A stretch of 59,237 bases of DNA from a virus (IMGVR_UViG_3300027896_000047:1-59237), one strand, 5' to 3'. Positions 27,425-51,465 are shown, counted from the first letter of the stretch. The notes: generated by a model from the letters alone, not told the origin. A program made the numbers and translations.

Positions 27425-28195
27425 ATGTTTCAAAAATTCTTAATATTGTTATTTTGTTTTCTTCTGTTCATGGTAGGGTACTCGTACGCTGGGCCTCTTG
27501 AAGATTGTGCTGAATATACGGTTGTAGGCGTTCCAAGTGTAGAAGGAACTTTACTTTGTCGAAAAGGATACCTTTTAGCACATAATTCAGATAACAAAAC
27601 GCCTAATTGGGTGATCGAACATCTTACTTTTGAAAAAGTAAGTAGCAAAGAAGCAAAAAGATCCAATAATTTTGCACCAGATCCTGATCTTACGAAAGGT
27701 GAAAGAGCTGAACTAAATGATTATAGAAATAGTGGCTTTGATAAGGGCCATATGGCCCCATCTGCTGATATGGAATGGGATCAACAAGCAATGAATGAAT
27801 GCTTTTACTTGAGCAATATGGTTCCTCAAGTAGGTAAAGGCATGAATCGTGATATATGGTCACATCTTGAAAGAATGATACGAGATTCAGCAATGCATAG
27901 AAAAGAACTGTATGTTATTACAGGTCCTATTTACCATGATACACCTCATCAAACTATCGGAAATGATAATGTATCAGTGCCAACACATTTATTTAAAATA
28001 GCGTATGATCCAAAAACGAAAGAAGCGATTGCCTTTATCATGCCAAATGCCTCACTTAATCTTATTGATATGCCTAAATACATAGTTACAATCAATGAAG
28101 TAGAACAAGAAACACATCTTATATTTCTAAGAACCCTTGATGAGGCGTCACAAATAAAAGTGAAAAATACAAAATCTGAAGCACTCTGGCAGTAG
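27425..28195 (+). CDS. Secreted DNA/RNA non-specific endonuclease (NucA/EndoG family)
   Basis: Signal peptide MFQKFLILLFCFLLFMVGYSYA; DKGHMAP active site, SNMVPQ, N...W..LE and VPTHLFK. Confidence 0.92.
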   Translation: MFQKFLILLFCFLLFMVGYSYAGPLEDCAEYTVVGVPSVEGTLLCRKGYLLAHNSDNKTPNWVIEHLTFEKVSSKEAKRSNNFAPDPDLTKGERAELNDYRNSGFDKGHMAPSADMEWDQQAMNECFYLSNMVPQVGKGMNRDIWSHLERMIRDSAMHRKELYVITGPIYHDTPHQTIGNDNVSVPTHLFKIAYDPKTKEAIAFIMPNASLNLIDMPKYIVTINEVEQETHLIFLRTLDEASQIKVKNTKSEALWQ

Positions 28196-28203
28196 GAGAA
28201 CAT

Positions 28204-29055
28204 ATGATATGCATTTATGATAGTACTACGTTTGACGGTGTTTGTGCTGCTGCTATAGTTAAAAGAAAATTTGCAAAAGTAAAATTATTACCTTTTAATG
28301 AAACTAATACACCACCATGGCAATTAATAAAAACAGATGCTGAATCATCTGTTTTTATTCTTGGATGTGCGTTTGATATGCAGATTATGAAACAATTGGT
28401 CGATTCAGCTAAAGTTACCTGGGCTGTACATCATAAAAATTTAATAGATGCTTCAGTAGCAATAGGTTTGATAGCATCAACTCATTTAACTAGTACTATA
28501 AAATCAACATGCCAACTTATATGGGAGCATTTATACCCATATGAAGAAGTACCTCCTGGCATTGAAGCTATAAGTGCTGATGCTGTACATAACGATTTGC
28601 ATCAAAGTAAAGAATATATTACAGGGTTATCTACTTATTGGGATTTAAAACCTTCAGATGATATATGGGGAAATTTACTTCACCCATCTTCTAAGTTATC
28701 GTATCAAGACGTAATAGAAAGAGGTAAGAACGTACTAGCATATAAACGAAATGAATTTGCAAGACAAGCTAACGTCGCATGTTTTTCAACATACTTCCAC
28801 GGTCATAGAGCTTTAGTTATTAATAGTCAGGATGTAGATATCGAAGTTTTTCAGAAAGCTGCATGTAATGATACTGCTCCTTTTACTTTATATATTGCAT
28901 TTGCATGGATGAAAGATGCATGGCATTGTACATTGTATCCATCATCGTCATCATGTTCTTTTGATGTAGGTGATATTGCAAAAGCATATAATGGTGAGGG
29001 TACTAAAGAGAAAGCTTCTTTCGCATGTGATGAAATACCTTTTGCATTGACATAA
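28204..29055 (+). CDS. DHH/DHHA1-family phosphoesterase homolog with degenerate motifs
   Basis: Layout IY....DG..AA.I...W..HHK...S.C.L.W..L...DV..IAK.Y.G.G....A.F matches phage DHH proteins, but DHH reads VHH and GGGH reads GEGT. Confidence 0.7.
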   Translation: MICIYDSTTFDGVCAAAIVKRKFAKVKLLPFNETNTPPWQLIKTDAESSVFILGCAFDMQIMKQLVDSAKVTWAVHHKNLIDASVAIGLIASTHLTSTIKSTCQLIWEHLYPYEEVPPGIEAISADAVHNDLHQSKEYITGLSTYWDLKPSDDIWGNLLHPSSKLSYQDVIERGKNVLAYKRNEFARQANVACFSTYFHGHRALVINSQDVDIEVFQKAACNDTAPFTLYIAFAWMKDAWHCTLYPSSSSCSFDVGDIAKAYNGEGTKEKASFACDEIPFALT

Positions 29056-29057
29056 TT

Positions 29058-29153
29058 ATGTTGATAGAATTTGTGATAGGTTGTATTATTTATGTAATTA
29101 TACCTATAATTCTTGCAATATGCGCTAATTATTCATTTAAAAATAGACGTTGA
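29058..29153 (+). CDS. 31-aa single-TM micropeptide
   Basis: MLIEFVIGCIIYVIIPIILAICANYSFKNRR fills the gap between two genes exactly; below the ORF-track cutoff. Confidence 0.45.
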   Translation: MLIEFVIGCIIYVIIPIILAICANYSFKNRR

Positions 29154-29155
29154 CT

Positions 29156-29515
29156 ATGCCAAAAAAATTATTGTTTTCAGTAAGTAAAAAAGATCTTGTA
29201 ATTACTTATTTTTCGGGGACTGGAGCCGGTGGACAACATCGTAACCGTCACATGTGCTGTTGTAGGATGACACATCCTGAATCTGGTGCTACTTCTACAG
29301 GTCAATCTAATAGAGAGATGCAGGCTAATTTAAAGGAAGCCTTTCAAACATTAATAAATTCACCAAAATTTAAAATCTGGCATACTCAAAAGACGCATGA
29401 AATACTCAGTGGTATAACAGTAGAAGAGGCTGTAAATGCACAACTTGTACCTGAGAATCTAAAAATCGAGTGTAAAGACGATGAGGGACGATGGGTGAAT
29501 TTTGTCGAATCTTAA
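29156..29515 (+). CDS. Stand-alone GGQ peptidyl-tRNA hydrolase domain (ArfB/PrfH-like)
   Basis: FSGTGAGGQHRNR...R.TH..SG......R....N...AF; about 120 aa with no stop-codon recognition domain. Confidence 0.85.
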   Translation: MPKKLLFSVSKKDLVITYFSGTGAGGQHRNRHMCCCRMTHPESGATSTGQSNREMQANLKEAFQTLINSPKFKIWHTQKTHEILSGITVEEAVNAQLVPENLKIECKDDEGRWVNFVES

Positions 29516-30170
29516 AAAATGTGTATCAGTCGAATATGATAACATTGGGCGTGTATATGTATTTGAAGACGGAACTAAATACCATTCAGTAACTACTATG
29601 TTAGGTGCTACTTCTGATAAAAGTGGCCTTGATAGATGGAGAAGAAGAGTTGGTAATGTAGAAGCTTTACGAGTCGGTAAAGTCGCTACACATATGGGGG
29701 AGCAGTTTCATTTACTTGGAGAGCATTTTTTGAAGGGTAAATTGACACAACCATCTGTTAACCCTATATCAAAACATATATTTAATAATACAACGAAAAG
29801 AATACTTGAAAAACATGTAACTAAAGTCATCTCGGTTGAAGAGGTGCTATACACAGATCGATTTAAATTAGCAGGTAGAGCAGATTCTATTTTAGAATGG
29901 GATAATGAGTTAGTTGTGTTTGATTTTAAATTATTAAATAATGATGATAAAAAATGGTTAACCGATTATTGGGTACAAACTACAATTTATGCACATTGTT
30001 GGGAGGAGATGTACGGTATATTACCTAAAAAATTAGTACTAGTTATTGGCAATAAAAAAACTTTTAGTTCAAAATACTATGTATCTAATATTAAACCTTA
30101 TATTTCTAAAATGCATTATAGAGTAACACATTTTAATGCTTTAATGGAGCATGGTTATGGAATCAACTAA
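29502..30170 (+). CDS. PD-(D/E)XK exonuclease (phage type)
   Basis: SVTTML, G..FH, E.......LAGRAD...FDFK and Q...YA motifs. Confidence 0.85.
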   Translation: MSNLKKCVSVEYDNIGRVYVFEDGTKYHSVTTMLGATSDKSGLDRWRRRVGNVEALRVGKVATHMGEQFHLLGEHFLKGKLTQPSVNPISKHIFNNTTKRILEKHVTKVISVEEVLYTDRFKLAGRADSILEWDNELVVFDFKLLNNDDKKWLTDYWVQTTIYAHCWEEMYGILPKKLVLVIGNKKTFSSKYYVSNIKPYISKMHYRVTHFNALMEHGYGIN

Positions 30171-30558
30171 AAGAGGTAAAAGAGAAGAAATACAGAATAT
30201 AATAGTCGATATTTCTGATGGGCAAGTACCGTGTAAAGGTATTGTTTTAAATGTCTCCCTTAAAGGTTTAGCAATAACTGATATTCCAAGTAAATTTATT
30301 GAGAAGGCGTGTGCAAAAAATGTGAAAAGGTTCACAGCTATTGTATCAAGTGACACGGATACAATTAGAATCACATTAATACCTAGATGGGCAAATAAAA
30401 AAGAGAAGAATAGTGTTTATGCAAATGCCGGTTTTGAAATAGCTAATGAACTGAGTAAGTGGCAGCATTTTGTTATGCATAGAACTTCAATAGTTCTTGA
30501 ATCAAACGAGGATGATTGTGTATGGGGGAAGAATAATACTAAATATTTAAGAGTTTAA
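30151..30558 (+). CDS. PilZ-domain protein
   Basis: KRGKR...VDISDG...NVSLKGL ((D/N)xSxxG) and later RW...GFEI beta-barrel pattern. Confidence 0.7.
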   Translation: MVMESTKRGKREEIQNIIVDISDGQVPCKGIVLNVSLKGLAITDIPSKFIEKACAKNVKRFTAIVSSDTDTIRITLIPRWANKKEKNSVYANAGFEIANELSKWQHFVMHRTSIVLESNEDDCVWGKNNTKYLRV

Positions 30559-30641
30559 AATCGTTTTAGCGTACCTGTAAAACATAAATAGAGTTTTAAG
30601 TAGTATTTATTAAAAATAAATTCAGAAGGATACGCTACACT

Positions 30642-30992
30642 ATGTCGATGTCTTGTGCATACCCAAACAAAAGTACTTCTCACGCTGCCGAACGTTCAGG
30701 AGTATTTGCCGAAGATTTAGCTGAATTCGATTTATCCCATTATTACACTGTAGCAATTGAAGAGGAACTTTGCTTATTTTTTGCAAGAGTATTTAATATT
30801 GACATATTACATAATCCATTAAATGCAAATGATGATAAAGGTAGATTTAAGGATGTTGATATGAATATTTTAGTGTATCAATGGGACGATATTCCTGTAT
30901 TACAATTCACTTTAGTTCCAGATAATGAATCATACAATTATGATATACATTGTGTACGAATGTATGTAGTTGACGAAGAATTTCAAAATTAA
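30642..30992 (+). CDS. Acidic hypothetical protein
   Basis: ORF track; preceded by TAAAACATAAATAG. Confidence 0.5.
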   Translation: MSMSCAYPNKSTSHAAERSGVFAEDLAEFDLSHYYTVAIEEELCLFFARVFNIDILHNPLNANDDKGRFKDVDMNILVYQWDDIPVLQFTLVPDNESYNYDIHCVRMYVVDEEFQN

Positions 30993-31017
30993 ATAAAGTT
31001 ATTTTAAGAGGTTACTT

Positions 31018-31914
31018 ATGTGTTCAATGAAAGCAGTTTTAATAGGAATAGACTCATATCCAATTGTAAATAAAGGGTGTGTAAATGATGTGCTTGCAAT
31101 GCGTGATATTTTACGCTTCAAGCATTCAGTAGTAGAACAAGATATTCGTCTACTTACAAATAAACGAGCTAACACGGACGCTATTCTAGAACGTTTAGAA
31201 TGGTTAATTGACTGTAGCAATACTCAAAAGACACAAAATCTTCTTTTTTATTTTAGTGGGAATGGTGCCCAAATCCCAAACAGAGATTACGCTGTCGATA
31301 TTGGTGTTAATACTTTTGATCAAGTGCTATGTCCTGTAAACTTTGATTGGGATTATAATCCCGGCATTACAGATAGTGATATTCAGAATATTATCAGTAA
31401 AAAGAATAAAAACTGTCGATTAGTGATGGTATTTGATTGTTCTTATGCAGGGGAAGTTTTCAGTTTTGGACAAAATCCAAGTGACGTTATTTTTAAATCA
31501 ACAACAAAAACAATTAGTACACCTGTTGATTTCTTGTCCAGAGTGTCTGGTTTCAATTCAAATACAATCGTTAATATTGTAACTTCTGGAGAGCGTTTTT
31601 GGGGGTTCGTAAACGAAGCAAACACTTCTGAAAAGCCTTCAATTACACCACGTCATAGTATAGATGTACCGAATACTATTCTTCTGGAAGCATGTTCCGA
31701 TTATCAGGTTGCAATTGATGCTGATTTTAAAACTCGGTATCAAGGTGCATTTAGTTATTGTCTTCAGAAATTCCTATATACACATCCTGAATTTTCAATG
31801 CGCGAAGTACAAGAAAGTACTGAAAGATATTTAAAATCATTTGGGTTCTCACAAACACCTGTATTCAACATAGCAAGAGAAACAAATGCTCGTCGATGTA
31901 TTATTACAAATTAA
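31018..31914 (+). CDS. Caspase-like (peptidase C14, metacaspase-type) protein, predicted catalytically inactive
   Basis: KAVLIGID.Y...KGCVND, L.W, FYFSG(N)G.Q, LCP.NFDW, FDC(S)YAG, AC...Q.A.DA, GAFSY.L and Q.P. The His/Cys dyad is replaced. Confidence 0.85.
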   Translation: MCSMKAVLIGIDSYPIVNKGCVNDVLAMRDILRFKHSVVEQDIRLLTNKRANTDAILERLEWLIDCSNTQKTQNLLFYFSGNGAQIPNRDYAVDIGVNTFDQVLCPVNFDWDYNPGITDSDIQNIISKKNKNCRLVMVFDCSYAGEVFSFGQNPSDVIFKSTTKTISTPVDFLSRVSGFNSNTIVNIVTSGERFWGFVNEANTSEKPSITPRHSIDVPNTILLEACSDYQVAIDADFKTRYQGAFSYCLQKFLYTHPEFSMREVQESTERYLKSFGFSQTPVFNIARETNARRCIITN

Positions 31915-31937
31915 TTTTGTTATTTTAAGGACTATGT

Positions 31938-32336
31938 ATGAAAGTTACTGTTGAATTCGTAGTTAATATAGGATGTATGACACGTCAAGGTACTGTCGAA
32001 ACAATCTCAAAATCATTAGGTGATTTTGTAAGTGATGAAAGTAGTACTGCTTATCAAAAGTTAGTTAAAAGTGTGTTACAATTATCTGAGGTCACTGACT
32101 ATACTGAAATTATTTGGGTTATGGTAGGTTTTATTTCTATACAACCGGGTACATATGTACCTTTAGTAATTATGACAGGCACGTTGGAATGGTTTCAATC
32201 GGTACAATATTTTAAAAAACTTGTTGGTAGTGAAGGAGTACTTATATCCGAGCCTGTTTCATGTGGATTTATTGATTATTCCAGGAATTTACGAGTTGAA
32301 TTAGAAAATGGTGTTATTCAATTAAGTTCCATCTAA
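31938..32336 (+). CDS. Hypothetical protein
   Basis: ORF track; AAGGA RBS. Confidence 0.5.
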   Translation: MKVTVEFVVNIGCMTRQGTVETISKSLGDFVSDESSTAYQKLVKSVLQLSEVTDYTEIIWVMVGFISIQPGTYVPLVIMTGTLEWFQSVQYFKKLVGSEGVLISEPVSCGFIDYSRNLRVELENGVIQLSSI

Positions 32337-32337
32337 C

Positions 32338-34950
32338 ATGTTTGATGATCATAGACACATAGGAGCACATAAAGTAGGTGAGGGGAGAAACATAGTAAAT
32401 GTAAGCTCCCCTTTCCATTACTCAAGAAGGTATATTCCTGATGATTTAGGAGAATTCCTTTTGATGTGTGATACAAATAAGTATTTCTCACTAATCGATA
32501 GTCAATTTCAATCGCCGGAAGGTGGTGTAGTTCCTGAAAATAGTTACATTAAAACTGATTTTAAATCAGGTTCTTGTAATGCATATGCTAGTTATATACG
32601 CCCAGCGGATAGTCCAACGGTTGGGTATATAATACAACCAATATTAGTAACCGGTTCTAGCACTACTTATTTTGCTAAATGTGATTTAGATACGATTTAT
32701 ATAGATCCTAATAACAATGCTGCTTTAAAAACAGTGACTACCGGGATCCCTCATAGTATGTCAGGGCATTTTGGATCATTTTATCCAGGACAAAGAGATG
32801 TTGTAGGGGATTATCAGATAGGGCAACTCACAACTGTTGGAGTTCCTTTATTAAATACTAATACTTACAGTGGTATAAATAGATTTATTACTGATGCTAA
32901 TACCGGTGCAGTTCCTTTGTTAGCATCGTATGTTGGTAGGTATCAGATTAGAGTTGGCACACAACTTGCTAATCGTTTATATAGCACATTTTCCGCAAAT
33001 TCAGCATTTCCTAGTAATTCCTGTCTCGCAACAAACTATAATATATATCCTGGAAATTCATACACAAAATATTCAAGACCTACTGAATTGCCTCCAGCAT
33101 CAGATGCTAGTATTTTGGCATATTCTTTATGTTATCCAACTAGTTTATTGGGTAATGCTACTCCTTTTCTTGTAGAATTATTCAAAGACCCTGTTAATTT
33201 CCTAGTTAACAATGGGGAATATGCTCGTCCGTTATGTAGAGGGTATCAAATTTATGGTATGGGTACATATTTTTCATACGTGTATACTGCCGCTAGTTTT
33301 GATATAGGACCATCGGCTCTAGGAGTGCTGCTTTCATATGTCCCTCAAAAAATGGACTTATATTTTACGAATTATACAGTAGCGACTGATAAAACTACTG
33401 TGTACTCATGTGGTATGTATGCTAATACTGATATGCTTTTTTGTGATGTATTGGATATTGGTGTTGGCGCATTAACAGCCGGTTTCCATTTTCAAGTTCT
33501 TAGAAGTCGAAGAGGCTCTTTAGTAATTAGATACATGCCAGTTAGTGATCATTATATCAATTTAGATATTGCTGGTGCAGACTCTCCTAAACTTATTGAA
33601 TCGACTGATTTATTTTATGTAAATAATGGTGCAAATCCTGAAGAATATAATTATTGTGATGGTTTTCTTTATGGAAAACAATATTTTAAATATAGTACTT
33701 TTACAAAAACATCCCCTTCCCCTGTAATTACTAATGGTGCTTGGTCACCTGGGGATCAAAGTACACTTCTTAGAGCTATTCGAGTAACTCTTGAAAAAGG
33801 GTTAATTCAACACGCATTTACAGCAGTTCCTAATCCTAATAATCCTGGTACATTAGTATGGAAATTTGATGACATTACTATTAATTCTTTATCTCAAGGA
33901 ATTGGGAGTCTTAATCAAGTAGTACTTACTTTTATGGACTCTAATACAGTACGGACCAAAATGGGTCCAGACAGAGGATTTTTATCATCATGTCAAGCTC
34001 CTTATGATACTGTTTTTTGTGATGGAGAAGCTGTAGGAATTCCAGTACTTATTGATAATTGTCTAATAATGGGATTAACAAGTTCTCAAGGTATTCTTGA
34101 TGATATATACGATGGTATTGTTGCACAAGTATCAACTGTATTGATAACTAATACAATAGGTAATGCCCCTATAAAAACTGGATCGTTTACCATTCCAATG
34201 CATAGTATCGTTTTAGTAAATACTGATGCGACAGCATTAAATGAAGCAGCAATTTCGTTTGAATCAGTGCATCTTGATCATGGTGTAAGTGGTTTAGATA
34301 TAGCAGTAACAGGAATGAATCCAGCAGCACGTATTTTAGCAGGAACTTCATTTATACAAGGAGGTACTACATACAAATATATTTTGTTTTCACAAATACT
34401 TACAATTGAGTATATGTATACTTTTGATGTTAAATTACAACCCGGCGATGCCATTGCGGCTGTATTTAATGATTTTCCTTTCGGGTCATGCACATCTACA
34501 TTTTCATCTGCTCAAGTTTCTGTAAATGCGGATTCATTTCTTATCCCTTTAATAATAAATAAGTTAGTCATTACAGGAAGTACTCCTACGTTATTACCAA
34601 TCCCTAGTAATGCTCCTCCTATTACACCTTCCTCTGTACTTACAAATACAGGTATTAATTCTTTTGTATTTAATATAAGTGCAATACCAGGATTAGTATT
34701 ACAAGATGGTAACGGTTTAACATTCCCAAAGATCTGTACTTATAATAATTATGTGTTTACACATTCAGCTAAATACATTATTATGTTGGATAACTTAGGT
34801 AATGAATTATATAGAGATCAACTTGCGTGTGTCAAATATCAATCAGCACAACATACGTATTTCGATAGATTTGATATATTAATCAAACAAGGTTATGGCG
34901 ATTATATAATCGATGCATATTTTAAATCTATTACACCTACTACACCTTAA
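32338..34950 (+). CDS. Large beta-rich protein, possibly a virion/baseplate component (870 aa)
   Basis: Thr/Ser/Tyr/Pro/Gly-rich with low charge; no enzyme motif recognised. Confidence 0.5.
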   Translation: MFDDHRHIGAHKVGEGRNIVNVSSPFHYSRRYIPDDLGEFLLMCDTNKYFSLIDSQFQSPEGGVVPENSYIKTDFKSGSCNAYASYIRPADSPTVGYIIQPILVTGSSTTYFAKCDLDTIYIDPNNNAALKTVTTGIPHSMSGHFGSFYPGQRDVVGDYQIGQLTTVGVPLLNTNTYSGINRFITDANTGAVPLLASYVGRYQIRVGTQLANRLYSTFSANSAFPSNSCLATNYNIYPGNSYTKYSRPTELPPASDASILAYSLCYPTSLLGNATPFLVELFKDPVNFLVNNGEYARPLCRGYQIYGMGTYFSYVYTAASFDIGPSALGVLLSYVPQKMDLYFTNYTVATDKTTVYSCGMYANTDMLFCDVLDIGVGALTAGFHFQVLRSRRGSLVIRYMPVSDHYINLDIAGADSPKLIESTDLFYVNNGANPEEYNYCDGFLYGKQYFKYSTFTKTSPSPVITNGAWSPGDQSTLLRAIRVTLEKGLIQHAFTAVPNPNNPGTLVWKFDDITINSLSQGIGSLNQVVLTFMDSNTVRTKMGPDRGFLSSCQAPYDTVFCDGEAVGIPVLIDNCLIMGLTSSQGILDDIYDGIVAQVSTVLITNTIGNAPIKTGSFTIPMHSIVLVNTDATALNEAAISFESVHLDHGVSGLDIAVTGMNPAARILAGTSFIQGGTTYKYILFSQILTIEYMYTFDVKLQPGDAIAAVFNDFPFGSCTSTFSSAQVSVNADSFLIPLIINKLVITGSTPTLLPIPSNAPPITPSSVLTNTGINSFVFNISAIPGLVLQDGNGLTFPKICTYNNYVFTHSAKYIIMLDNLGNELYRDQLACVKYQSAQHTYFDRFDILIKQGYGDYIIDAYFKSITPTTP

Positions 34951-34973
34951 ATATTTTAAAGGTATAAACATAA

Positions 34974-35828
34974 ATGAATATAATTGATATTAATACATGG
35001 CGTACATACATCTATGAGCAATTGGATACCTGTTCAGAAGTTTACGCAAGTTCAGCGATGTTAGGCGCATTTGTATTCAAGTCAAAGAGACTTGCTTCTG
35101 ATTCATTAGCATTGTGGAATACTAGTATGTTACAAGCAAAGACTATGTTTTCAAAGTTATCTCCTGATAAACAATTAGAGTTTTCAAGAAATGTAGTAAT
35201 TAAAATACCTTTTATTTTTAATCGACCTATTCCTTTGTCAGATATACTGACTCTTAACGATACGAGCGGAGGTTCTGCACATATATTAGGTTTCTTGTCC
35301 TGTACAAGACAAGCATTCCCAGTTTATAAAGATGTTGTAACGCATGTACGTATTTCAGAAAATTATATTAGAAGTATGTTTCAAAATGCTTTCAAGGCAC
35401 AATTTAGTGAATATGTGCATTTAATTAATGGAGAGTGTTATATTTCTGGTTCTTTATTAGCTTATCTATCATTGGATCAGCATTCATATTTAAAGCATAT
35501 AAATAATAGAGAAATTAATGAATTACAAATATATGATATTAATGGGGAGGGGTGGAATGCATGCATCCTTGAACGTGAAGGAAATAATTGGTGCTCATTT
35601 GTAATAAATGCTCGTAGAAGTGTATTAAAAGATTTCGATATCCATGCTAATTGTGTGTGTTCAAATATAGCAGCAGTGGCATCACAAGAATTAAATAGAA
35701 GAAATATAACAGGAGATCAAGTTACTCATTTAATTACTGTATTTGATGTACAAAAAACTTTAGATAGCTTACATGATTGTTTATGTGAAACTGAGACACT
35801 TGATGTATTAACTAATTTATTAGTGTAA
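34974..35828 (+). CDS. Hypothetical protein with weak thiolase/FabH-like pattern
   Basis: INGEC...L, GEGWNACILE and L.RRNIT.DQV.HLI are spaced as in KAS III; tentative. Confidence 0.35.
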   Translation: MNIIDINTWRTYIYEQLDTCSEVYASSAMLGAFVFKSKRLASDSLALWNTSMLQAKTMFSKLSPDKQLEFSRNVVIKIPFIFNRPIPLSDILTLNDTSGGSAHILGFLSCTRQAFPVYKDVVTHVRISENYIRSMFQNAFKAQFSEYVHLINGECYISGSLLAYLSLDQHSYLKHINNREINELQIYDINGEGWNACILEREGNNWCSFVINARRSVLKDFDIHANCVCSNIAAVASQELNRRNITGDQVTHLITVFDVQKTLDSLHDCLCETETLDVLTNLLV

Positions 35829-35903: not shown

Positions 35904-38460
<2,557 letters not shown>

Positions 38461-40177: not shown

Positions 40178-41266
40178 TTACGAGAATGCGATAGTTACTG
40201 TACCATAAAGGTCAGTCATCGGATACGATTTAGCATAGAACGAACCTACTGAACGAATCCATGACCAGTTCTCAACATTGTACCAAGAATCCATAACGAT
40301 AAGAGGGATATAAGGTGCATAAATACCACCAACCTCGATCTCGCTATTACCTTTGTAACCAAGTAACAACTTATTGGTTGCAAGATTCGGTACAACATAC
40401 ATTGCGAACTCATCATTCAATGTACCCATTAAGAACAAACGTTTCAACATAGAAACTTGTCCTTTTTCAGCAGTCGGGGCAACATAGTCACCTGAACGTT
40501 TGAAGTATGCAGCGATCTTCGGATTACAAACTACGAAGTTCGGATATCTACGAGTTTTGTTGTAAATTTCACCAGCAGCGTCAACTACTGTATAGAACAA
40601 CTCTTTCTCTTTACGTGTTTTGATGTCAGGAGCGTCACCAACAAGAGGTGCAGTCCAAGTCTGACTGGTAGAACCAGTAGCTTTGGCGTAAAGGTCAGAA
40701 AGGATCTCAAAATTTGTTTCGTCAACAATTTTTGCAGAAAGTGCCTTGGTGATTTCTTGTTCAACATTGATGCCGAGTTTAGAAGATGCATCACCAGCCT
40801 CAAATGTCCATTTACCAGCAAGTTTTCTCTGACGAGCTTTGACGCCTTCTTCTCTTAACACGAAGTCAAGAGTTGAAGTAATACTTTGTCCCTCACCAGG
40901 ATCGTTGGAGTAAGCAAGAGATACATTGTCGATAGCTGAAGAACCAGCTGCGATAGTGCCACCTGCTTGATCAAGAGCAGATCCAGTATATACGTAATCC
41001 AAATACTGCACAATAGCAACACGATCAGGGATCGGCTGAATACCAACAACTTTGTTGATAATGGAATCACGTGCTAATTTTTTAATTGCCGGCAAGAAAA
41101 CTGTAGCAACACGGTCAATACTTGCTGTAGTTGTCTGCTCTGAAACTCTCTGAAGTTCCATACCTTGATTTTCCAGAAGCGCATGATAGATATCAACCAT
41201 ATCCTCAGATATATTAGTAATATCTTTTTTAGCTTCGTCTACATATGCTCTAATTTTGTCATCCAT
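40178..41266 (-). CDS. Major capsid protein (T4 gp23-like, HK97 fold)
   Basis: LLENQ, VGIQP, V.A..RKL...WT.E, E.EI...LS..I..E.N.EI, L.GYKG......G.IYAPYIPL; strong GGAGG RBS. Confidence 0.9.
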   Translation of the reverse strand: MDDKIRAYVDEAKKDITNISEDMVDIYHALLENQGMELQRVSEQTTTASIDRVATVFLPAIKKLARDSIINKVVGIQPIPDRVAIVQYLDYVYTGSALDQAGGTIAAGSSAIDNVSLAYSNDPGEGQSITSTLDFVLREEGVKARQRKLAGKWTFEAGDASSKLGINVEQEITKALSAKIVDETNFEILSDLYAKATGSTSQTWTAPLVGDAPDIKTRKEKELFYTVVDAAGEIYNKTRRYPNFVVCNPKIAAYFKRSGDYVAPTAEKGQVSMLKRLFLMGTLNDEFAMYVVPNLATNKLLLGYKGNSEIEVGGIYAPYIPLIVMDSWYNVENWSWIRSVGSFYAKSYPMTDLYGTVTIAFS

Positions 41267-41346: not shown

Positions 41347-43971
41347 TTAAATGGAACCCATAATTTTTTTGAATGAAACCATTCCGGCACTATCAGGTGC
41401 AACAGTGACAGGAGGAACAACAGCATGACTTTTCTGTGTAGCAGTAGGATCAAGGACATCCTCAACTTTAACAGATTCAGTTACAACTGTTTTAGCAGTT
41501 TCAACTTCAGCAATTAATTTAGCAGTAACAGCTTCAAGTTCTTCGATTGTAGTAGCAGCAGTGATTTCAGTACTAATAACTTCTTCAGTTACACCAGCAG
41601 CAGCTAGAACAGCAGATTTATCTTTTTTAGCAGTTGCGAATTCAAGAGCTTTCATTTCTGCGAAAGTCATCTCGTAATCAGCAACAAGTTTCTCTACCAC
41701 TTTTGTTAGTTCTTCAGGTGTATTAATTGCAACACCTTCGAATCTTTTCTCTAGTACAACTTTAAGATCGTCAAATAGCATTTTATCATCGCCTCCAATT
41801 TCGGTTTGTTCGGTTACAGGATTATTTTTAGCACCAGTATTAATATTTTGATTATCAGGAAGTGCATTACCACCCTCTCCGGTTTCATCGTTTTCAGGAG
41901 TAATAACTGAAGCGATAGCCTGGAAAGCAGCAGTAATATAGTCACTTACATTTGTGTCATCGGAAGCATCAACCATAGCTTGTGTAAATGTTGAAACTGC
42001 CATTTGGATCATGCCAAGAGCAATCATGATGTTGTCACTATTTATTGAATCGTTTAATGGTCCAATAAATTTGTTCATGAAGTCATCTTGATTCTGGATA
42101 CCGAATGCATCAGAAAAATCAGTAGGACTTCCATCAGGACTAGTGATTAAAGTATCAATGAATGAAGAAAGAGGATCATCACTTGATGTAGCTGTACTTC
42201 CGTCATCAGCTGCACCACCCATCATACTACCCATTGAGGCGGTAGAGGTCATTTCAGTTACTTTTGCAGCTTTAGCTAGTAAAGTACCCTTATTGATACC
42301 AAGAATAGTATTTGAAATAGCAGCAGCTATGTTATCATAAGCAACTGCACGACTTACCATAATTGTATCATCAACTTCTTCACTTCCTTCAGTTACTTTT
42401 TCCTTCGGAGTGACAAGAACCATACCATTGAAGACAGCGGATTCGATTACAGCTTCAGTGAATGCATCAGGCTCATCAAATTTAATTTTGCTTAATACTT
42501 CCGATCTAGCACTTACATCTTTTAAGAACTCAGGAATTTCACTAATACCAGCAGTCTCGAGTTCAGTGTATTTAGTATGTAAGAAACTAACTGCTTGCAT
42601 TTTTTGAGCAGCTGACATAGACATACTTTCACGAGCTACTAAATAATCTGATGTTGCTTGAAGAGCATTATTATTTAGTACAAGATCAATGTCATGTTCG
42701 GTACTTGTAGACTGGAATGCTTGATAGACAGGACAAGATAAAGTACCCTCAGAAACAGCAAATACTTGTTTATTAAGAGTTTCATTGTTTGTTAAAGCAA
42801 CGAGCTTAACAATTTTTGAAGCATCAACAAGATTCCAATCAGCATTTGTAGTTTTTTCAGAGGATTCAATTACTCTGATTTTTGGCGGGGCATCAGAAGT
42901 GAATAGCTTACCGGCGATACGTACAGTGCTTTGATTTTCTGCTTTAACATTAAGCTCTTGGTATTCAGCAGTTAATTTTTCGTAATTTGTATTTAAACCG
43001 TCGATTTTACTTTCAGTTACAGCGAGTTCTTCTTTTTTTGCATTTAGTCTTTCTTCAAGTTGACTTAAACCGGTTACGATTTGTTGACTGTTAGAAATTT
43101 TTGCATCAAGATCAGCAATAACTACTTTCTTTTCATCGGCAGAAAGTGTATTTTGCTCTAATTCTTTTTTAAGAGAAGCAATCTCTGCAGACAGTTTGTC
43201 TTTTTCGACGCTAAGTCTATCGACTTGCACCTGAGCTTCACGTACTTGCAATTCATCCATATCAAGAGTCTCCTCTGCTACATTTTTGTTTACGGGTATA
43301 GTTAATAAGGTTTTAATATCTTCTGTTAAAATACCATATTCAGTTGAGGTATCTTTTATGAAATTCTCTAGAACTTCTGAATATGCCATTGTATTATCTC
43401 GACACAATGAAGGCAGTATTGAATCTAATGCGTCTACACTTTCATCAGATGATTTTTCTGATATATTTGCTTTTGAAGCATTAGTGACGATATATGAAGG
43501 GTACACAACAAAATCAACGCCTTCTAATTTTAAATTGAAACGTTGATTTACTGATATTGTATTTCCACCAAGTTCTATTGACGAAGGTTGTGATTCGGCT
43601 TTTCCACGTAAGGAAATACCAACATGGTATTCATTAGACAGTAACCAAGCTATGAATTGCCCCCATATAGTAGGAAGTAATGTAAAATCAGCTTGTACTG
43701 TTCCTTCTGCATCGTTAAAATAGATATCATCAATAGCAGCGGCTATTAATCCAATCCATTCTTCATCACTATCTTTCGGGTGTTTTGCAAAGGAGTATTT
43801 ATATGTAGGATCTAAAGCAATTAATTTTTTATAATATACAATTGCTTCTTTTAGAACAGCGGTAGAATATATATTCCGATTCCTACCTGGTTTATCGGCA
43901 AAAACAACATCGACTTTCGTGATTTTCATCGGTTTAAATTTATCAACCATGAATGCTGTTGGTATTGCCAT
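41347..43971 (-). CDS. Prohead protease (T4 gp21/HK97-like) fused to a long scaffold region, 874 aa
   Basis: N.NIYS..VL, KHP, L.T.WG, VGISLRG and DFV..PS in the first ~165 aa; then coiled coil and an acidic Ala/Glu-rich tail. Lies directly upstream of the capsid gene. Confidence 0.8.
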   Translation of the reverse strand: MAIPTAFMVDKFKPMKITKVDVVFADKPGRNRNIYSTAVLKEAIVYYKKLIALDPTYKYSFAKHPKDSDEEWIGLIAAAIDDIYFNDAEGTVQADFTLLPTIWGQFIAWLLSNEYHVGISLRGKAESQPSSIELGGNTISVNQRFNLKLEGVDFVVYPSYIVTNASKANISEKSSDESVDALDSILPSLCRDNTMAYSEVLENFIKDTSTEYGILTEDIKTLLTIPVNKNVAEETLDMDELQVREAQVQVDRLSVEKDKLSAEIASLKKELEQNTLSADEKKVVIADLDAKISNSQQIVTGLSQLEERLNAKKEELAVTESKIDGLNTNYEKLTAEYQELNVKAENQSTVRIAGKLFTSDAPPKIRVIESSEKTTNADWNLVDASKIVKLVALTNNETLNKQVFAVSEGTLSCPVYQAFQSTSTEHDIDLVLNNNALQATSDYLVARESMSMSAAQKMQAVSFLHTKYTELETAGISEIPEFLKDVSARSEVLSKIKFDEPDAFTEAVIESAVFNGMVLVTPKEKVTEGSEEVDDTIMVSRAVAYDNIAAAISNTILGINKGTLLAKAAKVTEMTSTASMGSMMGGAADDGSTATSSDDPLSSFIDTLITSPDGSPTDFSDAFGIQNQDDFMNKFIGPLNDSINSDNIMIALGMIQMAVSTFTQAMVDASDDTNVSDYITAAFQAIASVITPENDETGEGGNALPDNQNINTGAKNNPVTEQTEIGGDDKMLFDDLKVVLEKRFEGVAINTPEELTKVVEKLVADYEMTFAEMKALEFATAKKDKSAVLAAAGVTEEVISTEITAATTIEELEAVTAKLIAEVETAKTVVTESVKVEDVLDPTATQKSHAVVPPVTVAPDSAGMVSFKKIMGSI

Positions 43972-44096
43972 TGTATTCTTTACCTTTAATAAATAAAAAT
44001 TATTAAACCATATGCTATTTATGTTTTAAGAATACAATAAAATTTTAAATTAAATATATCAAAGAGTTCAATTAGAAATGAGTGCATAAAAAATAC

Positions 44097-44157: not shown

Positions 44158-47100
44158 TTAGCTACTAGTATCTTTTATATAGATAACTTTAGCACCATAA
44201 AAATGTGCATCTCCTGATATTTGGTTACCAGAGTCATCATTTGTAGGTGCATTTCTTGCTTGATATGCATCCATCCTATATGCCATCGCTTGACTTAATG
44301 CCATCTGTTTTTCAGTAGCAAATTGAATATCAAGACCTCCTGAATGATATGTAGTTCCGGGGTTTTGACTCATCATACTCATCTGTTCACCTATTTCACT
44401 CATCGACATATTACCAGTAGGTGCTACAGTTTCCCCTTGGTTTAACATATCTCTTAAAGCACTTGACATTTCTTCTTTGTCAGCTTGTGTTCCGTCTGTT
44501 TGAGGAGAAAACCATCCCGCAGTAGTAGGTGAGCCACCAGTTTCACCTGCAGGCATATTCCAACGTTGCATAAACCCAGTAGGTGAATATTGAGTTAATT
44601 GTCCACCAGAACCTGTATCACGATTAAATTTATTATGGCTTTCAGGTGCTTTTGCTCTTTGTTCCCTTTCTAAAGCAGTTGTGTATCCAGAATTACTTGT
44701 TTCTGCATCTACTCTCTCTTGAACAGGGTTACCTTTTTCAGAATTATCCCAGAATTTTTCTTGTTGTTTTTTAAATGCTCTATCTTCATCTAGTTGATCA
44801 GGATTAGGAACTCCTAAATCTTTTGCCGGTTTGTCCTTATACTGTTCTGGTAATTCATCGGCTACTGCTTCAGATACAAAAAAATTACTAAGGCGATCAA
44901 GTATACTTTTATCTGGTTTTGGAATTGATGAAATAGCATTAAACTCAGGTTCAATAGCAGCAACACCGTCCCCTACAGTTTCTTTTTTATCTTTGATAAA
45001 TTTTTCTATATTTTTTTGTTTTTCATCGAATTCCTTACGAGCATTTTCTTCATATGGGGTTACTTTTTCTCCCCATATCCCACTACTTTCATTTTCTCTT
45101 CTTTCACTTTCTGTCTTTTTATTTTCTGATAATTCGCTTTGTAATGCACCTAATCCCATAGCACGGTGTTCTTTACTCCATGCCTCTTGTTGGGTCTCTT
45201 TTTTAGACACCCAAGATTCTATATTTAATTCTTTTTGAGTGTCCCCTTTATGTTCTTCAGGTTCTTCTGTTGCACTTTTACTTGCTCCTTTGTTGTTCTT
45301 CGGGTTATCGAAACTTTCTACTGTTGTTAAAAATGTTGTTAATGCTGCGGTAAGAGTATCTAATGATGAAGCTGATGAACCGGCTACATTACCAATACTA
45401 CTAAGAGCTTCAGTCATAACATCCATCTCTTTTGTATCTCTAGCTGAGAAACCTGATGGCATCTCTTTTTTGTCTATTTGTCGCATAAAACCAGCTTCAT
45501 TTTTAAGTATACCAGTCATATGTTTGTCATAATTCATGCTGCCAAGTTCTTCAGCTCTTTCTTCACCTACAACTCCTGCCACTCTCATACGCATAGCAAG
45601 ACCACCAGGACCTGCCATTGCTTTAGGGTCAATGTTACCATTTTCAAGCATTTTTGCTTCGTATGCACCTTGAGCCTTCTCATACGCTAGAGCTTTTTCA
45701 GGGGATACACCCCATAGTCCTACACCAGAAGTCATTACCTCATCAACACTCCCTGCACCTTCTTTCTGTAATGCATTAGCTTTATTTATATTACGTACTA
45801 CTTTTTCACCTAATGCCTGCATAGCTTGAGGTGTATCAAATGAGTCTTTAGCAACATCTTCAGGTCTAGTATTTCCAAATCTAGCATCTCCTACAAAGTT
45901 TCTTATAGAGTCAGATGCAGTATTTTTAAATCCTGCTATAACATTTGCTTTGGTATCATCATACCCCTTTCTTCCACTATCTATTTTAGATAGTAGTACA
46001 CCGATAGCACTTGATGCTTCTTTATCACCTAATCCTAAACCTTTAAATTTACTAGTTAAATCTGCAAGTACATCACTTTTTACTGTATTGGTAATTATAC
46101 CATCTTTTTGTGTATATACAGCTTCTGGATGTGCAAAAGCACGACTTGCGAAATCTTGCATTAGAGGTTGTACTCCTCTAATAAAATCATTTTCTTTCCC
46201 TAATTTATTTGTTTCTTCTCCCCAACCTTTATTATGTTCTTGTTGAGATGAATCGTATATTTTTAGTAGATCAGAATTTAATCCTTTTGTTGATTCTATA
46301 TGATAAGTACTAAGAGTTTCATTATTTTTCCGAAACTCATCTAAATCCTTACCTTCCATTACAGCATCTAAATGAGCATTACGGGAGTATGCATCAAAAG
46401 ATTTACCCATTGCTGTTTTTGTATCAGTTTCAGGTATAGTAATAGTCTGTCTTAATATTTCATCACGTTGTTCAGATATATCTTTATCTTTTTTAAACGT
46501 TTCTTCTTCTTTTTCTTTTGACTTTCCTCCAAAATAATTTAGAGCACCCCCTATACCGGATGCAAGTAACCCAAGAGCTGTAACAACCGTCCCGGCTACA
46601 GGAATAAATGGACCTATTGCAGCCGTTGCACCTCCAATAGCTTGTACCCAAGATCCCGTTGTTTGCATAGCATTATTGGAACCATTATTTGTTATTAAAT
46701 CATGTGCTCCAACTGCTGCTGATACTGTACCACCTACAACTCCTAAACCTTTCCCTAGATAGCTTCCAAAAAAACCCTTAGTAGTATATGCACTTGTTGC
46801 TAGTGCAGCATCTTCGCCAGTTAATTTAGGAACTATGCCGCCTCGTGCTTTAGATAAAACAGCGGTACCGAATAGACTTTCAACAGCAGCGTTTAATCCT
46901 GATCCCGATTCCTGTTTCCATGTGGTTTTCATCAATCCAGTAGTTGGATCTAAAGCCTGTGTAGAAGAAAGTATACCACTTTCTTTTCTTCTTTTATTTG
47001 CTAATACAAAGGCATCGGACCCTGAAAACATTGTAACTGCATCAACTACACCTCCACCTATTGCACCCGCTCTACCAAATAAACCTTCTTCAACTGCTCC

Positions 47101-50100
47101 TACATTTGCCGCCGTTACACCATGTCCTGTAGATAGTCTACTTGCTGATCTATTCACAGATGTAGCTACCGCTCTATTTAATGTACTAGTAAATACCTGC
47201 GGTAACATTGTTAATGCAGTTCCAAATGCTCCACTCAATAATGCACTAGTACCACCACTACCATCAGCAAGTTCGCTAATACCTTGAGATACTAATGATA
47301 AGCCCCCGAATTTTGCAGCGGCACGTAATGGTGCAGTTCGTAGTCCTGCAATACCTTGTTGCCACGCCAACATACTAACAGCACTTGCAGCGCCACGCAT
47401 AACCCCTTCAGAAGTACCTAAACCCTCTTTTTTATCTGCGTCACTCGAAGTGCCTGTAAGTGTTCTAAATGTCTTACCAACTACATGCCCCACACTTTTA
47501 GTCATATCAAGGGCTTCACCACCAATTGCTGATAAACCACCTCCTATCATAACTCTAGGAATATCTATAGCAGTTTTAGCAGTTTGTATCATAATAGCTT
47601 TACCAATAGGTGCGAAAACTTCTTGCGCTCCTATACGAACGGTGTCAGTAACTTCTTTGATAATTCCTTTAAGTTCTGATTTATCAACCGATGCTGCAAC
47701 TGAATGGATAGCTCCTCTCACATCCGAAAAGAAACCAGAAACAAGTTCATGTGCAGCAGCTTTACGTTCAGAATCACTATTAGAACTCTTATCTGCTTGT
47801 GCTACTTTTGTATCATATGTATCCATTCTTCCCATAAAAGGAGTTAGGAAACCATTCATAGCACTACTAATTCCAGCTGATGGAGAGAAATTTGTTAATA
47901 CAGATCCTAAAGCTTTATTAATACCTGTTAATATTAATGATTGAGCACCTGCCGGCGTGCCATACAAACTCTCTACATTATTACGTGTTTGTTGCCCAAC
48001 ATCACGAGAAAGCATTTCTTTATTTCTATCGTATGAGCCTCCTCTTTTCTCAGTGTACTTTTGAGCTAATGAGTCAATAGAATCTTCACGTTCATATTTA
48101 ACTCCATATCTTCCTGCTACTGATTCTAATGCAGCTCCTCGAATAGCTTGTTGTTGAGAATCTGGTAATAAACTTGTTAATTTACCCATGTCTCCAGGTT
48201 TAGTACCCATCGCATTTCTAAGCAATGCGAGAGTCGCTGGATTTTGCTCACTAGCCATTGGGTTTAGGATACTTGACGCCATTGTATCAGTAATATTTTT
48301 AGTTACTACAGCGCCTTCAGCGCCTTTACGCATTAAGATTTCTGAACCACCAAACATACCCATTAAAGATTGGTTCATAGTGTTCATCATCTCTACACCA
48401 GATAAGGATTTCATCTGAGTAGTTGTTTTACCTGCATAAGAAGCTAATAAATCAGGAGACATCTGGAAACGCATTTGTAAAGAACGGTATTGTCCAGCAA
48501 GCATTTCACGGATAGCAAATAATGCACCGCCAGTTCCCTGCTCAGGATTAACCATCCCCAACATCTGGACGTTTTCAAGCATTGTTTTCTGAAATGCAGG
48601 ATTTGCAGCTTGTGACTTAATGCTAGGCAACGTAGCCATTGAAGTCATGACCTGCATAGCTTCAGTAAAATGGATTGGCTGGGTTTTTGCTATATCAAGT
48701 GCTGAACTAACCGCCTGTGTAGCAGCAGATCTGGAACCTAATAATGATTGTAATGAGTTTGTTCTATCCTGTATTTCTCCTAAGATTGCAGGGGAACGCT
48801 CACCAAAACCCATCACCTCATTCTTAAGAGGTGATAAACCCATAATATTCGAAATACCTGAATACACAGGTTGTACTGTTTCGTATGTGGCTTGTTGAGG
48901 TATTTGAGAAAGTGCTTGAAATACAGTCCCTGAAAAAGCAAACATTAATGACCACTGCAAGTTTTTCATCATTGCAGCAGCAAATTCGTTACCGCCAGCT
49001 ACTTTATCATCAACTACGCCTTTTACTTTTTCAGCTCTAGTCATTTCAGCTGTGCCTTCATACACACTAGAACCATGCTGTACTTTATTTACAGTATCAA
49101 GAGTAGCACCGATTTTTTGTAATGATTGATCTCCACTTTTATTAAGTTTCTGTATATCAGCATTTGTAAACGCATTTGTAATATCTGAACGACCTTGTTT
49201 GTATATATTTTCAGCTAAATCTCTTTGTGTTTCTACCGCAGAGCTTCTTTTATCCAGAGTTTCTATACGATCTTGAATCTTTTGAACTTTAGGGCTTTTA
49301 TATTTTCCAGTAGCTTCGTCTTTTTCATCACCATGTGGTTCTTCTTGTATTACTTTGTTTAATTCTAAGTTTTTAGCTAGGCGTTGTTCATTTAATTTCA
49401 TTAAAGTGTTGTGAGCATTACCTGCTTTTTCTTGAGCACTTTGAACACTTTGTAAATTAACATCACCTAAATTAACACCCACTCCTTGTATTTTTTCTGC
49501 CATTCCAGGAGTTAAAATATTTGATACAACATTATCCCTAATTGAATTAGCTTTATTTCTAATATCATTAACTACTGATTGTTTAACATCTCCAGCAGTT
49601 AATGCCTGATCCATGCTAGTCATTGTCTGTAAAAGACCGGCACCATATGCACCCATCTGATCAGCTTTCATATAACTTTTAGTACTGACAGTCTGCCCAG
49701 GTTCCCCTTCGCCACCACTTAAAGAAATAAAAGGACTATATTTTGTACCTGCACTTTGATGTGCTGATATTAATCTACTTAAACTAGATCCAGCCTGACT
49801 TGTGAGCATTCCTGAATCACGCATTGCTCTTTCATTCAGCCCAACATTCATCAAACCTTGTTCTCTAAGAGTTACAGGTGTACCTGCCGCTGCTTGAGAT
49901 GCATAGAATGATTGCATTTTTGACCTAGCAAAAACAGTATTTCTATAATCGTCCCCAGTTTGTCCAGCATTTTGAGCATACTCATAGGACTTTCCAAGAC
50001 TTCCCTGAAGGGTTCTGATCATCATTTCATTTTTACCTAAGAATGATTTCAGATCACTTCCTATACCAATTGAGTTATCATGGGTTGGGTATTGCCCTCT

Positions 50101-50712: not shown

Positions 50713-51465
50713 TTATAGGAGAGCTTCGACAAAACCATTACCTAAAGTAACTTCAGCACTCATCCATGTTTCATGTTGTAACAGTTCATTAATAGTTGAT
50801 TCAGAGAGATTGGTATGTGCAACAAAAAATTTAACAATTTGTACTTGCATATCTTCATAATGTTTCATATAATCAAGTAAATCTTGTCTTTTTCCTTGAA
50901 TAGCTGCTCTGAATTGATGGATTAGTACATGTGTATTTTTAGTCAGTGTTCTTTTCTTACCGGCTAAAAGAACCATAACACCCATAGACGCGACAGTACC
51001 TGTACCTATTGTGTTAATAGGAATATAAAAATTATTCATAAAATCAATTAAATCCCAACCAGCTGAAATAACTCCTCCAGGACTAGCAATACGAAGATCT
51101 ATATGCATTTGATTAGGATCGTGAATCCCTAATTGATGATATTGTGTAAGTACTGTTTGTCCAGTAGAGATGATAGTTTGTTTTAACATATCAACACTAT
51201 CTTTACTTATCTCCCCATCAAAGTGAATTGTATTACCATCAGTATATATAGTAGGCATATCAGCAAACATAAAACCCCATACTAAATCAACTTGTGGGAT
51301 CATACCTTGTCTTGAAATTACAGGTTGATTAGTATTTGGAGTAACATCAATACTAACATCGCAATTTGAATTTACATCTTCTTTCACTTTTGTACCGGCC
51401 TTTTTTTCTTCTTCAAGAGTAAGCATATCATTTACTGGTACAAAACTCCCTTTTTTGACAGTCAT
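50713..51465 (-). CDS. ClpP-like serine protease
   Basis: I.SPGG....G, G.VASMG (Ser), LIHQ (His) and ETWMSAE...GFV. Confidence 0.85.
   Translation of the reverse strand: MTVKKGSFVPVNDMLTLEEEKKAGTKVKEDVNSNCDVSIDVTPNTNQPVISRQGMIPQVDLVWGFMFADMPTIYTDGNTIHFDGEISKDSVDMLKQTIISTGQTVLTQYHQLGIHDPNQMHIDLRIASPGGVISAGWDLIDFMNNFYIPINTIGTGTVASMGVMVLLAGKKRTLTKNTHVLIHQFRAAIQGKRQDLLDYMKHYEDMQVQIVKFFVAHTNLSESTINELLQHETWMSAEVTLGNGFVEALL

Follow-up and report, generated by a model that had tools for sequence, protein, structure and literature searches.

A conserved metacaspase homologue of a T4-like jumbo phage that lacks the catalytic dyad and retains the residues of a basic-P1 pocket

The virus record IMGVR_UViG_3300027896_000047 from IMG/VR, the whole 59,237 bases of which we analysed and refer to as the window, is densely coding, has a G+C content of 30-39%, is approximately 24% complete and, with its genes for a Gp23-type capsid protein and a ClpP-type protease, is a fragment of a T4-like jumbo phage. 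It encodes a metacaspase homologue, P0001, in which both residues of the catalytic His-Cys dyad are replaced (Table 1). P0001 is a single polypeptide that combines a p20-like and a p10-like part, and a word-indexed protein search found the identical protein on a 123-kb contig as well. Two other metagenomic proteins, P0002 (66% identity) and P0003 (60% identity), share its altered motifs, its length and its start, MCSMK.

P0001 is a true metacaspase homologue, with a likeness to the family far above chance. The Pfam profile Peptidase_C14 (PF00656) matched it with an E value of 7.3e-17 and 62.3 bits against a cut-off of 21.4, aligning residues 5-284 with profile positions 3-224 of 233, which by sequence threshold places the protein in Peptidase_C14 and in the metacaspase-orthocaspase group (MEROPS C14B). 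A phmmer search of the PDB returned ten sequences, metacaspases only, the best of which was AtMC4 (E 9e-12). The AlphaFold2 model, built from a 117-row alignment (A2), had a mean predicted local distance difference test score (pLDDT) of 90.0 and a predicted template modelling score (pTM) of 0.90. Foldseek matched this model to Arabidopsis MC9 and MC4, Candida and yeast metacaspase-1 (Yca1), Trypanosoma brucei MCA2 (TbMCA2) and a Geobacter C14 protein (E 2.5e-17 to 1e-10; template modelling score by query 0.56-0.71), and these metacaspases outranked MALT1 and the animal caspases, as befits a caspase/haemoglobinase fold of the metacaspase type. The first-pass annotation of this locus had described an otherwise complete metacaspase-like sequence, and the profile, structure-database and modelling results all bear this out. 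Over all 298 residues Pfam found the C14 domain only, with no domain resembling a death-effector domain (DED) and no other recruitment or adaptor domain; the generic 'caspase' model of PADLOC matched weakly and in the p20 part only (E 4.9e-11).

The loss of the dyad depends on the residue register, which we checked against metacaspases of known structure. In HMMER alignments that were ungapped at both motifs, Asn82 of P0001, within FYFSGNG, paired with the catalytic histidine of AtMC4, AtMC9 and TbMCA2 (His158), Ser142 paired with the catalytic cysteine (TbMCA2 Cys213) and Cys141 with TbMCA2 Cys212; for TbMCA2 the chain index equals the residue number plus 20, a numbering that fits Cys92, Asp95, His158 and Asp211 alike. 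Codons 140-145 read GAT TGT TCT TAT GCA GGG, giving D-C-S-Y-A-G. The same annotation had reported both replacements (SGNG with AAT, DCSYAG with TCT) and had flagged the adjacent Cys141; its residues and coordinates proved exact, and the ungapped alignments put Cys141 at the position of the usual non-catalytic neighbour. The two residues that follow are changed too: at positions 143 and 144, histidine is conserved at 0.90 and serine at 0.96 among 112 dyad-bearing relatives, where P0001 has Tyr-Ala. Whether Cys141 could take over catalysis is addressed by an experimental counter-example, since the TbMCA2 chains in 4afr and 4afp carry C213A or C213G with Cys212 present, and these mutants are called inactive in the available text of PMC4357240. 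In T. brucei MCA4, which has serine for the catalytic cysteine and an intact histidine, the available text of PMC3220528 describes activity as undetectable, whether towards peptides or towards the protein itself; P0001, unlike MCA4, lacks the catalytic histidine as well. P0001 is thus a homologue of these enzymes that, by analogy with TbMCA4 and TbMCA2, is predicted not to be an active peptidase.

Loss of the dyad is rare in this family. We pooled 22 proteins from a word-indexed search with the best 150 of 4029 matches in an exhaustive search to obtain 171 aligned proteins, of which 163 have both the histidine and the cysteine and 164 have the histidine; the 112 dyad-bearing relatives in A2 all have the histidine by selection. 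The eight exceptions are P0001, P0002 (SGSG/DCSYAG), P0003 (SGNG/DCCYAG), P0022 (SGSG/DCSYSG), P0143 (SGFG/DCCYT), P0116 (tyrosine for histidine), P0129 (tyrosine for cysteine) and P0026, a fragment without the histidine column. The dyad is also complete in 238 of 241 retrieved loci, a count that the search patterns SG[HN]G or GCVND bias towards histidine. A homologue in a bacterial metagenome-assembled genome (L191:2440-3201) keeps the histidine and has asparagine at the position of the catalytic cysteine.

In a maximum-likelihood tree of 40 rows (a quick IQ-TREE run, with support from the Shimodaira-Hasegawa-like approximate likelihood ratio test, SH-aLRT, only), P0001, P0002 and P0003 form a clade with support of 100. 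This clade is nested in a group supported at 97 together with P0004-P0007, all SGHG/DCCHSG, and then in a group of 13 supported at 96; every other member of both groups has an intact dyad. The seven closest dyad-bearing relatives, P0004-P0010, are 43-56% identical to P0001, and all have SGHG and six have DCCHSG, with DSCHSG in P0009. By parsimony, the common ancestor of the three would have lost His82 and exchanged His143-Ser144 for Tyr-Ala, and Cys142 would have become serine later, in the branch leading to P0001 and P0002. P0022 and P0143 lie elsewhere in the tree on long branches, and therefore at least two independent losses of the dyad have occurred, although the pairing of these two proteins may be a long-branch artefact. 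The P0022 pattern is nearly that of P0002, a possible convergence. The change from cysteine to serine, a structurally mild one that takes one nucleotide, recurs in P0022, in TbMCA4 and, according to the available text of PMC6426788, in the YS pseudo-orthocaspases of cyanobacteria.

The gene is under selection. L084, a 1.1-kb contig, carries codons 1-145 of a protein that is identical to P0002 over that stretch, and a Nei-Gojobori comparison of P0001 with L084 over 141 codons gave pN 0.21, pS 0.67, dN 0.25 and dS 1.65, hence a ratio of non-synonymous to synonymous substitution rates (dN/dS) of 0.15, which is approximate because dS is near saturation. The direction is clear, however: two proteins that both lack the dyad have been held under strong constraint. 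Terminal branches in the tree were 0.22-0.30 for the three dyad-less members, as against 0.17-0.26 for their active sisters. Both measures indicate that the gene is maintained by selection and is not a pseudogene, and the purifying selection makes it likely that the protein has a non-catalytic job.

To see what this constraint has preserved, we compared the three clade members with the 112 dyad-bearing relatives at columns conserved in at least 70%. The core motifs of both halves are mostly preserved. In TbMCA2, the S1 pocket, which accepts lysine or arginine at P1, is described as consisting of Cys92, Asp95, Ser156 and Asp211 (PMC4357240, available text); the corresponding Cys21, Asp24, Ser80 and Asp140 are identical in P0001, P0002 and P0003, so that the pocket residues are complete in all three. 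The allosteric Ca2+ site of TbMCA2, described in the same text as Asp173, Asp189, Asp190 and Asp220, maps to Asp101, Asp119, position 120 and approximately position 149 of P0001. At the first three of these positions P0001 has D,D,S, P0002 D,F,S and P0003 D,S,D, as against D,D,D in the seven closest active relatives; the fourth position is arginine in the active relatives of the clade and serine in P0001, which therefore does not have the four-aspartate site. The aspartate pair is damaged differently in each dead protein, as relaxed constraint on Ca2+ activation after the loss of catalysis would produce. Changes common to all three proteins are N12D, D48N, H82N/S, H143Y, S144A, R149S/T, R164K, T231V/I and S232A, and most of them fall either in the conserved motifs near the dyad or in the QTSADA motif of the p10 half; of the seven active proteins nearest to P0001, some likewise carry R164K or S232A, and positions 72-73 differ too, yet are variable in those seven. 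D98N, E102Q and D108N are found in P0001 only, of which E102Q is uninformative because TbMCA2 itself has glutamine there.

P0001 belongs to a family whose genes are common in large phages. Of 262 candidate stretches in IMG/VR, 173 were confirmed as metacaspase homologues, many of them on contigs of 100-400 kb. Five records of huge phages (L014, L027, L049, L030 and L035; 253-395 kb, three of them at least 97% complete) each have exactly one C14 match, and in such phages the metacaspase gene looks like an accessory gene that recurs as a single copy. With a single copy in five out of five, the dead copy in the window is more likely a replacement than the partner of a phage paralogue. A relative with an intact dyad and 41% identity to P0001, on L083, lies among genes for a phage DNA polymerase, a ribonucleotide reductase and a baseplate-like protein; the phage setting of the active relatives is taken from L083 and not from P0004-P0010. 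Cellular homologues are 25-36% identical to P0001 and scattered over many phyla. With phage enzymes among the nearest relatives and cellular homologues this distant and scattered, there is no sign of host mimicry; the gene descends not from a host defence caspase but from a lineage in which at least one active member is carried by a phage. A literature search that is provisional, being short on subscription journals and supplements, turned up no paper that deals with metacaspases or pseudo-caspases of phages, and the word 'caspase' is absent from the jumbo-phage survey PMC7824862.

The pseudo-metacaspase gene is the second of a tight co-directional block (30642-35828), and the three open reading frames (ORFs) downstream of it probably belong to the same transcription unit. 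Neither these ORFs nor the one upstream in the block nor the one at 30151-30558 had a match in Pfam, PHROGs, PADLOC or NCBIfam. The two genes upstream have homologues in the same order on L084, the one relative compared (59% and 56% identity); in the wider family we found no conserved neighbour, with only isolated single matches to window genes among 160 homologue-bearing loci. A complex prediction for P0001 and the 116-residue upstream protein scored 0.00 in a run without controls, which speaks neither for nor against a contact between them, and the Atlas model of the 870-residue protein, with a pLDDT of 0.24, was too poor to use. Farther upstream, the RF-1-domain protein would be a stand-alone peptidyl-tRNA hydrolase or a ribosome-rescue-type factor of the phage, and the non-specific endonuclease starts with what looks like a signal peptide, which is unusual in a phage nuclease. 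A PD-(D/E)XK exonuclease is also encoded in the window. In the head-gene block, the ClpP-family protease may be the prohead protease. The best cultured matches of the capsid protein are jumbo phages of approximately 350 kb, at no more than 29% identity; a megablast of 20 kb of the window against cultured phages gave no match, and a search of IMG/VR for related phages with the 870-residue neighbour and the capsid protein found none.

Table 1 Features of the window that bear on the pseudo-metacaspase gene and its surroundings
Feature	Position	Strand	Remarks
DNA/RNA non-specific endonuclease	27425-28195	+	Pfam E 5.9e-53; apparent N-terminal signal peptide
DHH phosphoesterase-like protein	28204-29055	+	phrog_4771, E 2.5e-17; beside nuclease genes
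RF-1-domain protein	29150-29515	+	121 residues; GGQ motif; Pfam E 7.5e-10; phrog_3122
Promoter-like 13-mer	30579-30591	+	Intergenic, sense; 51 nucleotides before gene 30642, the first of the block
Acidic ORF upstream of P0001	30642-30992	+	116 residues; no family match; homologue (56-57% identity) at the corresponding position on L084, ahead of the P0002 gene
Shine-Dalgarno sequence AAGAGG	31006-31011	+	6 nucleotides 5' of the ATG
Pseudo-metacaspase gene (P0001)	31018-31914	+	298 residues; open from ATG to stop
Cys21 and Asp24 (GCVND)	31078-31089	+	S1-pocket Cys92 and Asp95 of TbMCA2; retained
Ser80	31255-31257	+	S1-pocket Ser156 of TbMCA2; retained
Asn82 (AAT)	31261-31263	+	At the catalytic His (SGHG to SGNG)
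Asp101	31318-31320	+	Ca2+-site Asp173 of TbMCA2; retained
Asp119-Ser120	31372-31377	+	Ca2+-site Asp189-Asp190 of TbMCA2; second Asp lost
Asp140	31435-31437	+	S1-pocket Asp211 of TbMCA2; retained; invariant in 117 of 117 rows of A2
Cys141 (TGT)	31438-31440	+	TbMCA2 Cys212; first Cys of DCCHSG, non-catalytic neighbour
Ser142 (TCT)	31441-31443	+	At the catalytic Cys
Tyr143-Ala144 (TAT GCA)	31444-31449	+	Replaces His-Ser of CHSG; common to the three clade members
Three tightly packed downstream ORFs	31938-35828 (31938-32336, 32338-34950, 34974-35828)	+	132, 870 and 284 residues; no family match
NAD-dependent DNA ligase	35919-37907		Full; follows the pseudo-metacaspase block
Gp23-type major capsid protein	40178-41266	-	
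874-residue ORF	41347-43971	-	No Pfam match; beside the capsid gene
Identical 13-mer	44015-44027	-	Intergenic, sense; 44 nucleotides before the 874-residue head-module gene
2163-residue ORF	44158-50649	-	No Pfam match; between the ClpP-type protease and the capsid gene
ClpP-type protease	50713-51465	-	Between a 713-residue ORF and the 2163-residue ORF of the head-gene block

A 13-mer ahead of the block, which we take to resemble a T4 late promoter, recurs exactly once in the window, before the 874-residue gene of the head module. Of the two matches, one is given by the way the motif was defined and only the other is a real test; the exact 13-mer was absent from 100 of 100 shuffles, and the two copies match over 14 nucleotides if the preceding T is counted. 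The ATAAATA core is not enriched in the window (42 occurrences against 40.7 expected), nor is the 13-mer with up to two mismatches (8 against 8.3), and scans for sigma-70 promoters and terminators were at or below shuffle expectation. The late motif proposed by the first-pass annotation thus stands as an exact shared element and not as an enriched core; it fits a common promoter element and possibly late co-expression with the head-module gene. The further suggestion that the protein is packaged in virions, on which the 13-mer has no bearing, finds no support here; the genes that flank it on either side have no match to a family of structural proteins.

On balance, we lean towards the view that P0001 is a conserved pseudo-protease of a T4-like jumbo phage that binds a target containing lysine or arginine without cutting it. 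P0001 would have arisen, probably within a phage lineage, from a relative whose dyad was intact. Purifying selection would have preserved the fold, the p10-like half and the four pocket residues for a basic P1 while the Ca2+ activation site decayed. P0001 would then dock non-catalytically on a protein containing lysine or arginine, probably of the kind that the active ancestors cut, and the bound target would be held, masked or sequestered rather than cleaved. Binding itself, like the identity and the origin of the target, is something we infer; a target of the ancestral type is favoured because the pocket is retained, the phage lineage is normally single-copy and the gene is not host-derived. 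Several points weigh against this interpretation. The S1-pocket residues may have been kept for folding rather than for binding. According to the available text of PMC4357240, Ca2+ probably serves to order the substrate-binding loops of TbMCA2, so the decayed Ca2+ site could weaken substrate docking too. The target may have changed, since the motifs in which R149S/T and T231V/I fall could be in contact with the substrate. The measure of selection covers no more than the N-terminal half, has a nearly saturated dS and comes from a clade of three members. In addition, with approximately 24% of the genome in the window, an active paralogue elsewhere is possible.

The first-pass annotation had proposed a dominant-negative inhibitor or substrate trap on the model of FLIP. 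cFLIP, a paralogue of caspase-8 in animals, is inactive: its caspase-family domain lacks the catalytic residues, and it acts by binding. It has death-effector domains and forms a heterodimer with the caspase from which it was duplicated, whereas P0001 has no such domains and belongs to a monomeric branch; cFLIP is mentioned in the available texts of PMC8195603 and PMC3220528. Applied to P0001, the model would have the dead metacaspase engage a caspase-like protease of host immunity (a type IV Thoeris effector, a CHAT protease or a protease that activates gasdermin, for example) and block it, acting either as its dominant-negative partner or in the manner of a pseudo-substrate. That a phage carries a conserved dead protease, that PADLOC's caspase model matches its p20 part and that the reported type IV Thoeris inhibitors, in the available accounts, are sponge proteins and not dead proteases can be counted in its favour. 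However, metacaspases are described as active monomers with two extra strands, whereas caspases homodimerise along strand beta6 (PMC4357240, available text), and the two extra strands would leave no caspase-like dimer edge. For a FLIP-style mechanism, both a recruitment domain and a partner for dimerisation would be required; neither is present, nor would either be expected for a monomeric metacaspase. With the nearest relatives including phage enzymes, in a lineage with a phage-borne active member, the analogy is weak and we regard such a decoy as rather unlikely. The substrate-trap half of the proposal is compatible with the retained S1 pocket; the dominant-negative, FLIP-like half is unlikely.

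Could P0001 instead serve as partner or substrate of an active metacaspase elsewhere in the same genome, as T. brucei MCA4 is processed by MCA3 (PMC3220528, available text)? The incompleteness of the genome leaves room for such an enzyme and the trypanosome pair is a precedent, but the window has one C14 match and the gene is single-copy in all five huge-phage records, which makes this arrangement unlikely. We give about as little credence to a non-catalytic role apart from the old substrate site, as a scaffold or a late virion or assembly component: the 13-mer shared with a head-module gene and the neighbouring ORFs without family match, the 870-residue protein included, would suit it, but the S1 pocket is fully retained and the genes around the block (nucleases, the DHH phosphoesterase and the RF-1 protein upstream, then DNA ligase) are non-structural. 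It is less likely still that P0001 remains a protease that uses Ser142 or Cys141 with another base. Serine is a possible nucleophile, Cys141 is adjacent and P0003 keeps Cys142; against this, the general-base histidine is lost in all three proteins, position 143 is tyrosine, and both the TbMCA4 and the TbMCA2 precedents are inactive. A decaying gene or a sequencing artefact without function is the least credible explanation. Each motif change is indeed a single nucleotide away from the codon of the canonical motif (AAT/CAT, TCT/TGT, TAT/CAT and GCA/TCA), but the frame is intact over its full length, two other metagenomic proteins have the same changes, and the dN/dS value and the confident AlphaFold2 model already contradict it.

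The small clade of P0001 is in effect a natural experiment, a phage metacaspase gene that gave up catalysis while selection on it persisted, and binding without turnover would offer a simple handle on the targets of phage metacaspases. Caspase-family proteases are recognised executioners in several bacterial anti-phage systems, and the phage counter-measures described in the available accounts of type IV Thoeris inhibitors are signal sponges. P0001 is also a candidate to screen against caspase-based defences, where a pseudo-substrate or competitive role against a host protease specific for lysine or arginine is possible. In its boldest form, which we think improbable, the phage's own metacaspase would have become a non-cutting clamp that shields a phage or host protein from such a defence protease, or jams the protease itself, and would be the first viral dead caspase-family immune antagonist in prokaryotes.

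Among known systems, the active relatives P0004-P0010, together with the L083 protein, share with P0001 their length, architecture, linker motifs (GxRFWGF and PxDxLSR) and C-terminal FGFSQxP; P0004-P0010 differ from it in keeping the catalytic motifs and the Asp-Asp Ca2+ pair. Among predicted viral structures, the good matches (E 3e-16 to 1e-8) were without exception metacaspases from giant viruses of eukaryotes (Clandestinovirus, Fadolivirus, Medusavirus and others), 12-20% identical to P0001. T. brucei MCA4 and MCA1 have the metacaspase fold with serine for cysteine in MCA4 and both dyad residues lost in MCA1, and MCA4 is described as experimentally inactive yet functional; unlike P0001, for which no paralogue was seen in the window, these proteins are eukaryotic and lipid-anchored and work with active paralogues (Proto et al. 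2011, PMC3220528, available text). There is a parallel in form with the bacterial pseudo-orthocaspases, whose YS and YN variants are found mostly in photosynthetic bacteria (Klemencic et al. 2019, PMC6426788, available text). Like P0001, they have a prokaryote-type C14 p20 with a substituted His-Cys dyad, cysteine to serine being the commonest change there, conserve the two aspartates of the specificity pocket (Asp24 and Asp140 in all three clade members) and have a fold predicted to be unchanged. They differ in being cellular genes, often with extra N- or C-terminal parts and with tyrosine at the histidine position, whereas P0001 is phage-encoded rather than located on a bacterial chromosome, has a single domain and the pattern Asn...Ser-Tyr-Ala, and is at most 36% identical to cellular homologues. 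Should P0001 do no more than the pseudo-orthocaspases do, it would add only modestly to a class already known. Bacteria (PMC6426788) and trypanosomes (PMC3220528) are established as having dead metacaspases, and, to the extent that these sources cover the field, the phage setting appears to be new.

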